64,000 nucleotides of DNA from Acidimicrobiales bacterium (GCA_036563805.1 DATCLS010000102.1:67903-131902); one strand, 5' to 3'; shown: positions 18,701-24,700, counted from the first letter of the stretch. Notes: generated by a model from the letters alone, not told the origin. Numbers and translations: made by a program.

Positions 18701-21700
18701 GGCCGCCTGCGCGGCCCAGCCCGGGGTCGGGCACGCGGTCGTGCTCGTCCGCGACGACGGCCCCGGCGGCCCCCAGCTGGTCGCCTACGTCGTCCCCGAG
18801 CCCGGCGCCTCCGCCCCGGACGCCGCCGCCCTGCGCGCCGCCCTCGCCGCCCGGCTGCCCGACTACATGGTGCCGAGCGCGTTCGTCACGCTCGACGCCC
18901 TGCCGCTCACGCCCAACGGCAAGCTCGACCGCAAGGCGCTGCCCGCGCCGGGCGAGCCGGCCGCCCGGGCCCACCGGCCGCCGGCCACTCCGGCCGAGGC
19001 CGCGCTGTGCCGGCTGTTCGCCGAGGTGCTGGGTCTCGACGGCGGCACGGACGGCGCTGGCGCCGCCAGCGCGCCCCCGGTCGGCGCCAACGACAACTTC
19101 TTCGACCTCGGCGGCCACTCTCTGCTGGCGGCCAAGCTGGTGGCCCGGGCCCGCCGCGACCTCGGCGCCGCGGTGGCCGTGCGTGACCTGTTCGAGGCGC
19201 CGACCGTGGCCGCCCTGGCCCGGCGGCTCGGCCGCCCCGGCACCGGCGCCGGCGGTCCGGGCGCCGGCGGTGCCGCCCCCGAGCGGCCGCCCCTGGTGCC
19301 CCGGCCCCGGCCCGCGGCCCTCCCCCTGTCGCCGGCCCAGCGGCGGCTGTGGCTGATCGAGCAGCTCGAGGAGGGCACGAACGCCTACAACTTCCCGATC
19401 GTGGCCCGGCTCCGGGGCGAGCTCGACCTGGGCGCGCTCCGGGCTGCGCTCGCCGACGTGGTGGCCCGCCACGAGGTTCTGCGGACGACGTTCGGTGCGG
19501 ACGGCGGCCGGCCCTACCAGCGCATCCTCACCCCTGACGAGGCCGTCGTGCCGTTCGAGGTGGTCGACGCCACCGGGGCCGACCTCGACGCCCTGGTCGC
19601 CCGGGCGGCCCGGCGGCCGTTCGACCTGGCCCGCGACCTGCCGATCCGCCTGAGCGTGCTGGTGGCGGGACCGGCCGACCAGGTCGTGGTGCTGGCGCTG
19701 CACCACGTCGCCACCGACGAGTGGTCGGAGCGGCCGCTGCTCGGTGACCTCGACCGCGCCTACCGGGCCCGGGTGGTCGGGCGCGCGCCGGAGTGGCAGC
19801 CGCTGCCCGTCCAGTACGCCGACTACACGCTCTGGCAGCGCGAGCTGCTCGGCGACCCGGACGACCCGGCCAGCCTCCACGCCGCCCAGGCCGCCTGGTG
19901 GCGGGACACGCTGGCCGGCGCCCCCGCCGAGACGCCGCTGCCCACCGACCGGCCCCGGCCGGCCGAGCCCAGTGCGGCCGGGGGCACCGTGCATGTCCCG
20001 CTGGACGCCGCCACGTACGCCGCCGTGCGCCGGCTGGCGGCCGACCACGGGGTCAGCGTGTTCATGGTCGCCCACGCCGCGGTGGCCGCCCTGCTCCACC
20101 GCCTGGGGGCCGGCGACGACATCGTGCTCGGCGCCCCCGTCGCCGGCCGCACCGACGAGGCGCTCGACGAGCTGGTCGGGTTCTTCGTCAACACGCTCGC
20201 CTTGCGCACCGACGTCTCCGGCGACCCGACGTTCGCCGAGCTGCTGGCCCGGGTGCGCGACACCGACCTGGCCGCCTTCGAGCACCAGGACCTGCCGTTC
20301 GAGGCCGTGGTCGACGCCGTCAACCCCGTGCGGTCGCGGGCCCGCAACCCGCTGTTTCAGGTCATGGTCGGCCACGTCCACCGGACCGACGGGGGCGCCA
20401 GCCTGTTCGGCCTCGACGTCGAGCCCGTCCCGTTCGATCCCGGCGTCGCCAAGTTCGACCTCAACTGGATCTTCGCCGAGACCACCGGCGGGCCCGGCGG
20501 CGACCGGCTCGACGTCGGCGTCGAGTACTCGGGCGACCTGTTCGACCGGGCGACGGTCGAGGCCATGATCGGCCGGCTCCGCCGGCTGCTGGCCGAGGCC
20601 GCGGCCGCCCCCGCCACCCGCCTGAGCGCCTTCGACGTGGCCCCGCTCCGCCCCAGCGGGCGGCCCGAGGCCGGGCTCGACGAGCACGGCCGTGCCGGTC
20701 CCGTGGCCGTGGCGCCGGCGCCGGTCCGTCCCGGCCCGATCGGTGCCGCCGGTCCGGACGCCCCGGACGGTGCGCTGGTGGCGCGGGTGCGCGAGCTGGT
20801 CGCCGGCGTGCTCGCCCTGACCCCGGCCGACGTCGGGCCGGACGACGATTTCTTCGCCCTGGGCGGCGACAGCATCGTGGCCATCGCCCTCGTCTCCGAG
20901 GCCCGGCGGGCCGGCCTGCCGCTCCGGGCGCGGCACGTGTTCGAGGCGCCCACGCCGGCCGGCCTGGCCGCGGTGGCCACCGCAGCCGCGGCCGAGGCCG
21001 AGGCGGACGGCCGGTCGGCGCCCGCCGCCGAGCCCGACGACGGGGTCGGCGAGGTCGCCCCGCTGCCGGTCGTGCACTGGCTGCGGGAGCGGGGCGGGCC
21101 GATCGACCGCTTCCACCAGGCCGTCCTCGTCCAGGCCCCGGCCGGCGCCACCGAGGCCACGCTGACGGCCGCCCTCCGGGCCGTGATCGACCACCACGAC
21201 GCCCTGCGCCTCCGCCTGCGCCGCGACGCCGGCGGCGCCATCTGGCGCCTCGTCGTCGACCCGCCCGCCGACGCCGGGTCGCACGACCCCGACGGCGCAG
21301 CGCCGACCCACCCGGCGCTGCGGCGCGTCGACGCCCGCGGGCTGGGCGGGGACGCGCTGCGGGCCGCCGTCGCCGCCGAGGCCGACGCGGCCGCCGGCCG
21401 GCTCGCCCCGGAGGCCGGCACGGTGCTCCAGGCCGTGTGGTTCGACGCCGGCCCCGACGCCCCCGGCCGGCTCCTGCTCGTCGCCCACCACCTGGCGGTC
21501 GACGCCGTGTCGTGGCGCATCCTCCTGCCCGACCTGGCGGTCGCCTGGCAGGCCGCGGCCGCCGGCCGCGAGCCCCGCCTCGACCCCGTGCCCACCTCGC
21601 TCCGCCGCTGGTCGCGGCTGGTGGCCGAGGCAGCCCAGGACGCCGCCCGGCTCGACGAGCTCGCCCACTGGACCGAGACGCTCGCCCCCGGCGCCGAGCT

Positions 21701-24700
21701 GGTCCCGGACGCCGAGCTGGCCGCCGGCGCGCCGCCGGAGGCCGGCGGAACGGCCGGCGCCGCGGCCACCCTCACCGTCGAGCTGGGCCCGGATGACACG
21801 GCCCCGCTGCTCACCACCGTGCCGGCCTGCGTGCGGGCCCGGGTGGACGAGGTGCTGCTGGCCGCCCTCCAGCTGGCCGCCGCCCGCTGGCGCCGGCGCC
21901 ACGGCCACGGGACCGACACGGCCCTGCTCGTCGAGCTCGAAGGCCACGGCCGGGAGGAGGCGGCGGTCGCGCCGGACGGCAGCGCCGACCTGTCCCGCAC
22001 GGTCGGCTGGCTCACCACGGTGCGCCCGGCCCGCCTCGATCCTGGCCCGATCGACCTCGACGACGCCTTCGCCGGCGGCCCCGCTGCCGGGCGGGCCCTG
22101 AAGGCGGCCAAGGAGCAGGTCCGGGCCGCGGCGGACGGCGGGTTCGGCTACGGCCTGCTCCGCTACCTCCACCCCCAGGCCGGCCCCGTGCTGGGCCGGG
22201 CGGCCCGGCCCCAGGTCCTCGTGAACTACCTGGGCCGCGGCGCGACGGTCGAGGCCGACTGGTTCCCGGCCCCCGAGTCCGAGGCGGTGGACGCCGGCCC
22301 CGACCCGGCGCTGCCGCTGGTCCACCTCCTGCAGGTCGACGCCTCCGCCGAGGACGGCCCCGACGGGCCCCGGCTGCGGGCCCGCTGGACCTACGCCCGC
22401 GGAGCGCTCCGTGAGCCCGACGCCCGCGAGCTGGCCGACGACTGGGTGGCCGCCCTCCGGGCCCTGGCCGCCCACGCCGCCCGGCCCGGCGCCGGCGGGC
22501 TCACCCCGTCCGACCTGGCGACGGTCGCCCTCGACCAGGCCGCCATCGACGGGGTCGAGGCGGCCTACCCCGGCCGGGTCGCCGACATCTGGGCGCTCAC
22601 GCCGCTCCAGGAGGGGCTGCTGTTCCTGTCGTCGTTCGCCGAGGGCGGCCTCGACGTCTACACGGTCCAGCTGGTGCTCGAGCTCGACGGCCGGGCCGAC
22701 GCCGACCGCCTCCGGGCCGCGCTGCGGGGTCTGCTCGACCGGCACGCCAACTTGCGGGCCGGGTTCCGGTCCGACCTGACCGCGCGGCCCGTGTCGGTCG
22801 TGCTGCGTGACGTGGCGGTCGACTGCGCGGTCGTCGACCTGACCGGCCTCGACGCCGCGGCCGGCGAGGCCGAGCTGGCCGCCGTCGCCACCCGCGACCG
22901 CACCGAGCGCTTCGACCTCGCCCGGCCCCCGCTGCTGCGGGCCACGCTGGTCCGGATGCCGGGCGCCGACCGCCTCGTCGTCACCGCCCACCACATCGTC
23001 GTCGACGGCTGGTCGATGCCCCGCCTGGTGGCCGAGCTGCAGGCCCTGTACGCGGCCGGCGGCTCCGAGGCCGCCGCCGGGCTGCCGCCGGCCGTGCCGT
23101 TCGAGCGCTACCTCCGCTGGCTGGCCGACCGCGACCGGGACGGCCGGGACAGCGCCCGCGCCGCCTGGTCCGAGGCGCTGGCCGGGATCAGCGAGCCGAC
23201 CCTGCTCGCCCCGGCCGACCCGGGCCGGGCTCCGGCGCTGCCCGCCATCGTCCGCACCCGGCTGCCCGAGGGCCTGACCGACCGGCTGACCGGCGTCGCC
23301 CGGGCCCGGGGCCTGACCCTCAACACGCTGGTCGAGGCCGCCTGGGCCCTGGTGCTGGCCCGGACCACCGGGCGCCACGACGTCGTGTTCGGCGCCACCG
23401 TCTCGGGCCGGTCCCCCGACGTGCCCGGCATCGCCGACATGATCGGCGTGTTCATCAACACGCTGCCGGTGCGGGTGCGCCTCCGGCCCGGCGAGGCGCT
23501 GGCCGACCTCCTCACCCGGCTCCAGGCCGAGCAGGCCCGGCTGCTCGACCATCAGCACGTCGGCCTGGCCGAGCTGCAGCGGCTGGCCGGCGCCGACGAG
23601 CTGTTCGACACGCTGCTGGTGTTCGAGAACTATCCGCTCGACCCCGGGACCGGCGGCGCCGCCGGCGCCGAGACCAGCGGCGCCGGTTCGACGGGCGACG
23701 GGCCGACTGCCGGCGGGCCCGAGGACGGTCCCGACGGCGGCACGCTCGACCTCGCCGGGGCGACGTCCGCCGACGCCACCCACTACCCGCTCACCGTCGT
23801 GGCCGAGCCCGGCCCCCGCCTCGGCCTGGCTGTGGAGTACCGGCCCGACCTGTTCACGCCGGCCGACGCCGAGGCCCTGGCCAGCCGCCTCCGCCGGGCA
23901 CTGGAGGCGTTCGTCGACCAGCCCGACCTCCCCGTCGGCCGCCTCGACCTGCTCGCCGACGACGAGCGCCGGCGCCTGGTGGCTGCCGCCGCCGGCGAGC
24001 GCCTGCCCGTCCCCGACGCCACGATCCCCGCCGTCTTCGAGTCCCAGGCCGCCGCCAGCCCGGACGCCCCCGCCCTGGCCTGCGCCGACACCCGCTGGAC
24101 CTACGGGGAGCTGAACGCCCGGGCCAACCGGCTGGCCCGCCACCTGCTGGCGCTCGACGTCGGGGTCGGGCCGGAGACGGTCGTGGCGCTCCTCCTGCCC
24201 CGTTCGCACCGGGTGGTGGAGGCCCTGCTGGCCGTGCAGAAGGCGGGCGCCGCCTACCTACCCGTCGACCCCGAGCTGCCCCCCGAGCGCATCGGGGCCA
24301 TGCTGGCCGACGCCCGGCCGGTGGCGGCGCTCACCGTCTCCGACCTGGCCCCCACCGCACCGATCCCGCCGGCCGTGCCCACGGTCGTTCTCGACGACCC
24401 GGCCACGGCGGCCCGGATCGCCGCCCGGCCGGCGGCCGACGTCACCGACGCCGAGCGCCCCAGCCCGCTGACGCCGGACCACGCCGCCTACGTCATCTAC
24501 ACGTCGGGTTCGACCGGCCGGCCCAAGGGCGTGGTCGTCCCCCACCGCAACGTCGTCACGCTGCTCCAGAACCACCGGACGCGCCTGCTCCGGCCGACGG
24601 CCGAGCGCCTGGGCCGTCCGCTGCGGATCGGCCACGCCTGGCCCTTCTCGTTCGACGCCTCGTGGCAGCCGCTGCTCGGCCTGCTCGACGGGCACGAGAT

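Follow-up and report, generated by a model that had tools for sequence, protein, structure and literature searches.

A hexamodular NRPS in a hydroxamate siderophore cluster

The window (the whole 64 kb stretch of DNA analysed) derives from an uncultured Acidimicrobiales bacterium and carries a hexamodular NRPS gene, apparently of the albachelin type, together with accessory genes (Table 1). The NRPS gene likely starts at GTG 3588, which we preferred over 3096; GC3 takes up the coding pattern from 3591, and a ribosome-binding site (GGGGGGAGG) lies 5' of this GTG. Using Pfam and a self-search with the window's own adenylation (A), condensation (C) and carrier (T) domains as queries, we mapped the domain order as C1-A1-T1, C2-A2-T2-E2 and C3-A3(MT)-T3 for modules 1–3, and as C4-A4-T4, C5-T5-E5 and C6-A6-T6-(E-like terminal domain) for modules 4–6, where E is an epimerization domain and MT a methyltransferase. 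E2 is degenerate and is the least conserved domain (52% identity, 83 gaps). The idea that C3 lacks its catalytic His was rejected: among further C domains positioned after an E domain there is a HHxxxWDGWS subfamily, one residue longer, and C3 belongs with it, so that the second His is kept and Arg replaces the first.

Table 1 Features of the NRPS gene, module 5 and the surrounding cluster.
Feature	Position	Strand	Basis or remarks
Six-module NRPS gene (probable hydroxamate siderophore synthetase of albachelin type)	3588..27407	+	Pfam, self-domain map
A2, second Ser-specific A domain	8286..9785	+	code DVWHISLVDK
A4, Ser-specific adenylation domain	17496..18932	+	Stachelhaus code DVWHFSLVDK
T4, carrier domain, GGHSL type	19047..19229	+	Ser codon 19119-19121
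C5, LCL-type condensation domain	19320..20639	+	intact HHVATDE at 19701-19721; Pfam Condensation match
C5-T5 linker, 49 residues, at place of missing A domain	20640..20786	+	Pro/Ala/Gly-rich
T5, carrier domain, GGDSI type	20787..20975	+	PP-binding Pfam match; Ser codon AGC 20871-20873
E5, intact epimerization domain	21048..22535 (about)	+	motifs, TIGR01720, nearest PDB entries
C6, DCL-type condensation domain	22584..23969	+	expects D-configured donor from T5
A6, probable N5-hydroxyornithine A domain	24039..25577	+	code DAWE(G)GFVDK
GNAT, siderophore N-hydroxy-amine acyltransferase family (Acetyltransf_8)	31470..32108	+	Pfam PF13523, E = 5e-39
FUR-family regulator adjoining the cluster	34172..34618	+	Pfam PF01475

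Two of the A domains, A2 and A4, carry Ser codes and are 64% identical to each other; the Ser specificity of A4 had already been proposed in an earlier, sequence-only reading of this DNA. The code of A6 probably denotes N5-hydroxyornithine (hOrn), judging from its comparison with the hOrn code quoted for scabichelin (DAWEGGLVDK; PMC7692728).

The Acetyltransf_8 GNAT marks the cluster as one for hydroxamate-siderophore biosynthesis. A KS-ACP-AT cassette upstream of the NRPS suggests an N-acyl group longer than acetyl. At 574 nt upstream of the window the source contig breaks off within an ABC-transporter gene; the cluster is thus cut at the contig end, and the window ORFs that were scanned yielded no ornithine N-hydroxylase. 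A motif search found no MbtH-like gene in the window or in L080, a related contig described below.

Anatomy and conservation of an A-less module

Module 5 had been described as A-less (C-T-E), and the self-search, Pfam, the motif search and tblastn all bear this out. None of the A-domain core motifs A3, A5, A7, A8 and A10 occurs in the three forward frames of 19270-22600, in agreement with the earlier claim that AMP-binding core motifs are absent, and tblastn of A4 gave no match within 19230-24000. A cryptic A domain in module 5, looked for with both searches, is therefore ruled out. Where the A domain would be expected lies a linker in which 29 of the 49 residues are A, P or G; its composition had been recognized, with its length put at about 55 residues. 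Given this C-T-E anatomy without an A domain, T5 needs loading by another A domain.

The remaining domains of the module appear complete. In the PDB, C5 comes closest to entry 7kvw, the fuscachelin PCP-C didomain (E = 4e-125). The Ser codon of T5 sits exactly where the sequence-only reading had placed it, and the GGDSI class of this carrier is typical of T domains preceding E domains. E5 retains HHLAVDA (at 21486), EGHGRE (21939), RTVGW (21996) and NYLGR (22224) as well as FGYG, its TIGR01720 tail scores above the cutoff, and its nearest solved structures are the E domains of PvdL, BacC, TycB, TycA and GrsA; the earlier description of an intact E domain stands, with its end moved from 22400 to about 22535.

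The flanking condensation domains agree with this arrangement. Among 256 C domains, all 30 nearest neighbours of C5 follow T domains, and those of C6 follow E domains in 29 of 30 cases; C6 is 44–46% identical to C3 and C2 and 28% identical to C4 and C5. With a post-T type at C5 and a post-E type at C6, the assembly line is built for a D-residue made on T5. C5 had also been called a duplicate of C4, and C4 is indeed its closest paralogue (62% amino acid identity), but the relationship is an old one rather than a recent copy, orthologues of C5 being 68–78% identical and C4/C5 paralogues 56–63%.

The same C-T-E junction is present in two orthologues from independent assemblies, L079 (an Acidimicrobiales MAG, 66% amino acid identity) and L080 (a JGI metagenome contig, about 70%), which excludes misassembly and recent decay. 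Collapse of repeated modules was likewise ruled out as a source of misassembly, C4 and C5 being too dissimilar and the junction recurring in both assemblies. In L080 the full order from A2 to the E-like terminal domain is identical to that of the window NRPS; its A4 has the same Ser code as in the window, and its A2 code is DVWHVSLVDK. The catalytic motifs of C5, T5 and E5 are intact in all three lineages (window, L079 and L080) at 58–70% identity. Within the module, conservation peaks at T5 (78% amino acid identity to L079), and the C5-T5 linker is poorly conserved, with a length that varies in L079 and L080. Values of dN/dS against L079 are 0.49 for C5, 0.22 for T5 and 0.50 for E5, compared with 0.56 for C6 of the neighbouring complete module, and are comparative only because dS is compressed by 97% GC3. 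Module 5 is neither an artefact nor a decaying relic and is constrained like the neighbouring C6.

Short contig matches read as further A-less modules proved mostly to be T-E-C matches once their domains were mapped. Genuine A-less C-T-E modules among them are confined to L005, L006, L022, L023, L034, L035, L036, L041 and L045.

Candidate loaders of T5

We compared the domains of the window with the published domain string of the albachelin NRPS of Amycolatopsis alba (Kodani et al. 2015; PMC4599437), which is quoted as C/A/T-C/ASer/T/E-C/AOrn/MT/T-C/ASer/T-C/ASer/T-C/A/T/E. On the strength of that string, both synthetases run through six modules in the same order. They open with a C domain; a Ser module that includes E and an Orn module into which a methyltransferase is inserted come next, then two Ser positions in succession (the second predicted in the window), and last an Orn-type module whose final domain is E-like. 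Both belong to a hydroxamate siderophore context. Module 5 is C-A(Ser)-T without E in the albachelin string and C-T-E without A here, whereas every other position matches; the window further differs in its degenerate E2, in the upstream KS-ACP-AT cassette and in its uncultured Acidimicrobiales host. Because the albachelin string has A(Ser) at this place, the homologous module 5 is a Ser module, and albachelin is described as carrying Ser-Ser at positions 4 and 5 (PMC4599437).

Our main reading, to which we assign a probability of roughly 0.6, is that module 5 is a functional, maintained A-less module whose T5 is charged with L-Ser by a Ser A domain in cis, most likely A4. We infer this loader, and hence residue 5, from the albachelin Ser module, the paralogy of C5 with C4, the post-E type of C6 and the precedents discussed below, all of which support the earlier proposal of L-Ser followed by D-Ser. 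A4, directly upstream in an A-T-C-T arrangement, would charge both T4 and holo-T5 with L-Ser, A2 being the other candidate. C5 (LCL) would then couple the peptide held on T4, with L-Ser4 at its end, to Ser-S-T5, E5 would invert the new C-terminal Ser, and C6 (DCL) would hand the D-Ser5 peptide to hydroxyornithine on T6, for a predicted backbone of acyl-X1-Ser2-(N-Me-hOrn)3-L-Ser4-D-Ser5-(cyclo-hOrn)6. No sequence feature marking the loader of T5 was found. T5 is 48% identical to T4 and 64% identical to T2, its closest relative and the partner of A2, so that on T-domain similarity A2 would be as good a loader as A4; this guide was set aside as uninformative, since it merely separates GGDSI-type from GGHSL-type carriers.

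Loading in trans, by a stand-alone A domain (or an A-T plus a shuttle) encoded outside the window and perhaps specific for a residue other than Ser, is in our view unlikely. It draws on the part of the cluster that is unseen beyond the contig end. A-less modules served in trans are known from ramoplanin/enduracidin and syringomycin biosynthesis. In WS9326A, likewise, the A domains Cal22 and Cal23 act in trans on an A-less C-PCP module (PMC7539972). However, a tblastn search of the full window with A4 recovered five A domains, every one within the NRPS ORF, with no further match above noise; no stand-alone A domain lies in the 64 kb, and none on either strand of the 20 kb of L080. The earlier statement that none is visible in 64 kb is thus correct, although this absence carries little weight, the cluster being cut off at the contig end. 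The lack of an MbtH-like gene in both sequences, the two Ser A domains already available in cis and the Ser at position 5 in the published albachelin string also speak against trans loading.

It is quite improbable that module 5 is inactive or skipped, the chain passing directly from T4 to C6 to yield a pentapeptide. Module skipping is known in NRPSs, for example in myxochromide S, and a module without an A domain might be a remnant within a synthetase that also carries the degenerate E2, but the motifs of C5, T5 and E5 have all been kept across the three lineages, T5 is the most conserved segment whereas E2 is the least, and C6 is of the D-donor type, yet T4 would offer it an L-Ser terminus. 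More doubtful still is loading of T5 by the downstream A6 with hydroxyornithine, which would give D-hOrn5 followed by cyclo-hOrn6. A6, too, adjoins module 5, and neighbouring identical Orn-derived residues are described in this siderophore class, as in the hOrn-chOrn C-terminus that the qinichelin preprint gives for S213L (10.1101/163170). In every precedent compared, however, reuse involves an A domain upstream of the A-less module; residues 1, 3 and 6 could already account for all three hydroxamates that a chelator of the albachelin type would need; and C5 is paralogous to the Ser-accepting C4, with Ser at position 5 in albachelin as published. We give the least credence to C5-T5-E5 as an uncharged 'transfer and epimerize' station, to which the chain would move from T4 only to have Ser4 inverted, again with a pentapeptide as product. 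Such a station would account for the missing A domain without cross-module loading and, if real, would amount to compensation for a dead E2 and to a novel function of a C domain. C5, however, is an ordinary LCL domain with a conserved HHxxxDE, closest to a fuscachelin elongation C domain, the albachelin homologue elongates at position 5 according to its published string, and we are aware of no case in which a C domain transfers a peptide from thiol to thiol.

Comparison with other A-less modules

If a Ser A domain in cis loads T5 as we propose, the module would be a clean, conserved case in which one Ser A domain probably feeds two positions, one L-Ser and one D-Ser, and a possible natural test case for an A domain reaching a second carrier across a C domain. 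It would also aid product prediction, pointing to a hexapeptide with three Ser rather than a pentapeptide, for a siderophore pathway from the almost unexplored, uncultured Acidimicrobiales.

Pandorachelin of Pandoraea offers a siderophore parallel: in its NRPS, module 2 is an A-less module that follows a complete one, with an adjacent L-Thr, D-allo-Thr pair, and according to the authors' proposal one A domain, the upstream one, charges both T domains, the gap being kept in all producers (PMC13592322). The loader in that system is also inferred, with isotope labelling of the product in support (PMC13592322). Pandorachelin differs from the window system in having Thr rather than Ser, a proteobacterial host, eleven to twelve modules and another chelating chemistry.

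In viomycin assembly, VioA-A2 is a Ser domain that yields two adjacent Ser. Loading of VioI by VioA-A2 is suggested by earlier studies, and loading of the A-less CmnI by CmnA-A1 in capreomycin biosynthesis has been demonstrated by intact-protein mass spectrometry (PMC12400406). As we propose for module 5, CmnI and, by suggestion, VioI are A-less modules that receive their residue from an A domain elsewhere in their own assembly line (PMC12400406), but they are separate T-C proteins, and so are loaded truly in trans, they have no E domain, and their pathways lead to an antibiotic rather than a siderophore. CmnI further differs in a special N-terminal extension of its T domain (PMC12400406).

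For the rhodamides, Ser A domains have been proposed to supply A-less modules (PMC11586506). WS9326A resembles the window in having an A-less C-T module inside a multimodular NRPS and differs in the dedicated stand-alone A domains of its cluster (PMC7539972); no such domain is visible in this window. Amychelin was dropped as a precedent; the Nerpa supplement mentions no A-less module for it. The Nerpa genome-mining tool itself encodes a 'stutter' rule (PMC8541647). A-less modules that draw on the A domain of another module are already on record, and genome-mining software takes them into account, so current understanding is unchanged, and module 5 is most likely a further example of the reuse documented in capreomycin, viomycin, pandorachelin and the rhodamides.

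Anatomy and conservation of the A-less module

The giant NRPS open reading frame spans 3096-27407, and codon-position G+C together with a ribosome-binding site placed its start at a GTG at 3588, which overlaps the stop codon of the gene before it. Domain order was derived from Pfam and from a search of the NRPS protein with its own domains. All forward frames of 19270-22600 lack A-domain core motifs, and tblastn with A4 across the whole 64 kb found no A domain beyond the five of the NRPS, bearing out the sequence-only reading that module 5 lacks an A domain and that no stand-alone A gene lies in the 64 kb; the serine codon it gave for T5 matched exactly. 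E5, which it had called intact, retains its motifs, scores above the cutoff for TIGR01720 and has as nearest solved structures the E domains of PvdL, bacitracin synthase 3, TycB, TycA and GrsA, although it ends near 22535 and not at 22400. C5 lies nearest, among solved structures, to the elongation C domain in the fuscachelin PCP-C didomain (7kvw, E = 4e-125). On these anatomical features module 5 belongs to the A-less C-T(-E) class of NRPS modules.

Domains and neighbouring genes of the NRPS, in window coordinates unless stated
Feature	Position	Details
ABC exporter gene	1-1308	NRPS flank
KS	1362-2498	directly upstream of NRPS
ACP	2515-2790	91 residues, LDSMEF
AT	2809-3591	short, FabD/MdcH-like; stop overlaps NRPS start
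Module 1		C1-A1-T1
Module 2		C2-A2-T2-E2
A2		code DVWHISLVDK, Ser
E2	10113-11465	1724-2782 in L080
Module 3		C3-A3(with methyltransferase)-T3
A3		code DMWNLGLINK, embedded methyltransferase; presumably hydroxyornithine-like
Module 4		C4-A4-T4
A4		code DVWHFSLVDK, Ser
Module 5		C5-T5-E5
C5	19320-20639	HHVATDE at 19701
C5-T5 linker	20640-20786	49 residues, 29/49 Ala, Pro or Gly
T5	20787-20975	GGDSI type, Ser codon AGC at 20871-20873
E5	about 21048-22535	HHLAVDA, EGHGRE, RTVGW, FGYG, NYLGR
Module 6		C6-A6-T6, then terminal E-like domain
A6		code DAWE(G)GFVDK, near scabichelin hOrn code
Membrane 'fatty acid desaturase' family protein	32967-34073	best NCBIfam match GntB, E = 9e-29, below cutoff

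Module 5 is neither an assembly artefact nor a relic, because the same junction recurs in two independent assemblies, and ortholog and paralog identities, comparative dN/dS with intact motifs, and C-domain types all agree. Protein P0001 (contig L079, Acidimicrobiales MAG GCA_036563745.1) is 66% identical and runs C5, short linker, T5, E5, C6 and start of A6. The NRPS of contig L080 (JGI metagenome Ga0193742_1000362), about 70% identical, is colinear over the full order, A2 through terminal E-like domain, and its C5-T5-E5 also lacks an A domain. C5 orthologues are 68-78% identical, against 56-63% for C4/C5 paralogues, which makes the A-less state older than the split of the three lineages. Against L079, dN/dS was 0.49 for C5, 0.22 for T5 and 0.50 for E5, next to 0.56 for C6 of a complete module, values meaningful only as a comparison between domains since 97% GC3 compresses dS; the catalytic motifs of module 5 are intact in all three lineages. 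C domains were typed by their nearest neighbours in a set of 256 from the fetched loci, each labelled by preceding domain: C4 and C5 group with post-T domains (30/30 neighbours), and C3 (30/30) and C6 (29/30) with post-E domains.

C2 also has mostly post-E neighbours (28/30) and is 45-46% identical to C3 and C6, and T1 carries the GGDSI signature typical of carriers preceding E domains (T1 and C2 lie within 6546-8219). Module 1 nevertheless has no E domain; either it was lost or residue 1 gains a D configuration in some other way. The window has 77% G+C, and an antisense ORF of 4237 codons (11496-24209, minus strand) overlaps the NRPS. This and many further long ORFs in non-coding frames are by-products of that composition, so an uninterrupted ORF is weak evidence of selection here.

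Loading of T5

The sequence carries no feature that marks the loader of T5. Most economically, we infer that T5 is charged by one of the Ser A domains in its own polypeptide, after which C5 would condense, E5 would epimerise and C6 would take the D-Ser peptide onward; we put in-cis serine loading followed by epimerisation at a probability of roughly 0.6. A4, whose serine specificity had been read correctly from the sequence, is the favoured loader, because of the A-T-C-T arrangement and because, in the precedents considered, an A-less module follows the A domain that is reused. Protein mass spectrometry showed that CmnA-A1 loads the A-less CmnI of capreomycin, and in viomycin VioI is proposed to be loaded by VioA-A2 (PMC12400406); for the rhodamides, the A-less modules are proposed to be supplied by Ser A domains that neighbour them on both sides (PMC11586506), and a 'stutter' rule is encoded in Nerpa (PMC8541647). 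A2 is a possible loader. T5 is most similar to T2 (64%) and least to T4 (48%), a likeness mainly reflecting GGDSI versus GGHSL carrier class. In T4 the first helix and GGHSL are separated by a Gly/Ala-rich insertion of 14 residues (19038-19079); its absence from L080 makes a connection with dual loading unlikely.

Loading by a stand-alone A protein, as exemplified by WS9326A (PMC7539972), is possible: the window begins at position 575 of the source contig (ENA ERZ4232226 NODE_220, 106,645 bp), whose end, 574 nt further upstream, cuts the ABC exporter gene, so that the left-hand portion of the cluster (for instance an ornithine N-hydroxylase) lies outside the available sequence. Against it, the window and L080 show neither such a gene nor an MbtH gene. 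A6 as the loader, or a role of C5-T5-E5 in chain transfer alone, would be possible in principle but gained no support. Skipping of module 5 is unlikely, given its conservation and a C6 of post-E type, as in a line built to take a D-configured residue from T5. E2 provides the contrast, its catalytic motifs being truly lost: HH has become HP at 10542 (AHPLAVDA in the window, AHALAVDA in L080), EGHGRE reads ERPDR (ECPGRS in L080), RTVGW reads RTVGP and NYLGR is gone, and conservation across the domains is lowest here (52% identity, 83 gaps).

With E2 degenerate, Ser2 may stay L, though C3 is of the post-E lineage. The C3 active site (11886-11915), identical in L080, has Arg for the first His and keeps the second. 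C3 falls in a post-E subfamily whose motif, HHxxxWDGWS, exceeds the canonical one by a residue and was seen in six loci (L007, L042, L043, L049, L054, L078); in the Rhodococcus loci L024 and L061 the motif reads RQFLLWDGWS and both His are absent.

Pathway and known systems

The adjoining KS-ACP-AT genes, the overlap of the AT stop with the NRPS start and the opening C domain suggest that a dedicated acyl chain is built on the ACP and then joined to residue 1. Flanking genes also encode a FUR regulator and a GNAT from Acetyltransf_8, a family of siderophore acyltransferases. The desaturase-family protein, whose best match, below cutoff, is the guanitoxin L-arginine gamma-hydroxylase GntB, may serve the pathway as an amino-acid or acyl hydroxylase. 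In the roughly 2 kb that follow the NRPS (27408-29450) Pfam recognises no gene; the codon-position composition of the ORFs there is odd (GC1 about 0.45-0.5, GC2 about 0.75, GC3 0.96-0.99), and the region is not conserved in L080. We take A3 to be hydroxyornithine-like by comparison with the coelichelin code. The A6 code lies near that for hOrn in scabichelin, DAWEGGLVDK (PMC7692728).

A-less C-T-E modules are not uncommon. The NRPS of many Streptomyces genomes has two in tandem, as C-T-E-C-T-E after a C-A-T-E module; eight of the fetched loci show this (L005, L006, L022, L023, L035, L036, L041, L045; for example L023 11747-18003), and L034 carries one. About 78 Streptomyces protein clusters (P0002-P0079; 1730-1900 residues) have C and carrier domains only, some with an AMP-binding_C remnant. 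Modules of this kind are already known, so module 5, well conserved and from an unexplored lineage, would hardly surprise a specialist. It probably works like its A-less counterparts in pandorachelin, viomycin/capreomycin and the rhodamides. Albachelin, with three Ser, N-methyl-hydroxyornithine, acylated hydroxyornithine and cyclic hydroxyornithine (PMC6151521), is made by an NRPS with the published domain string C/A/T-C/ASer/T/E-C/AOrn/MT/T-C/ASer/T-C/ASer/T-C/A/T/E (PMC4599437). The window NRPS matches this string position by position except in module 5, which is C/T/E where albachelin has C/ASer/T.
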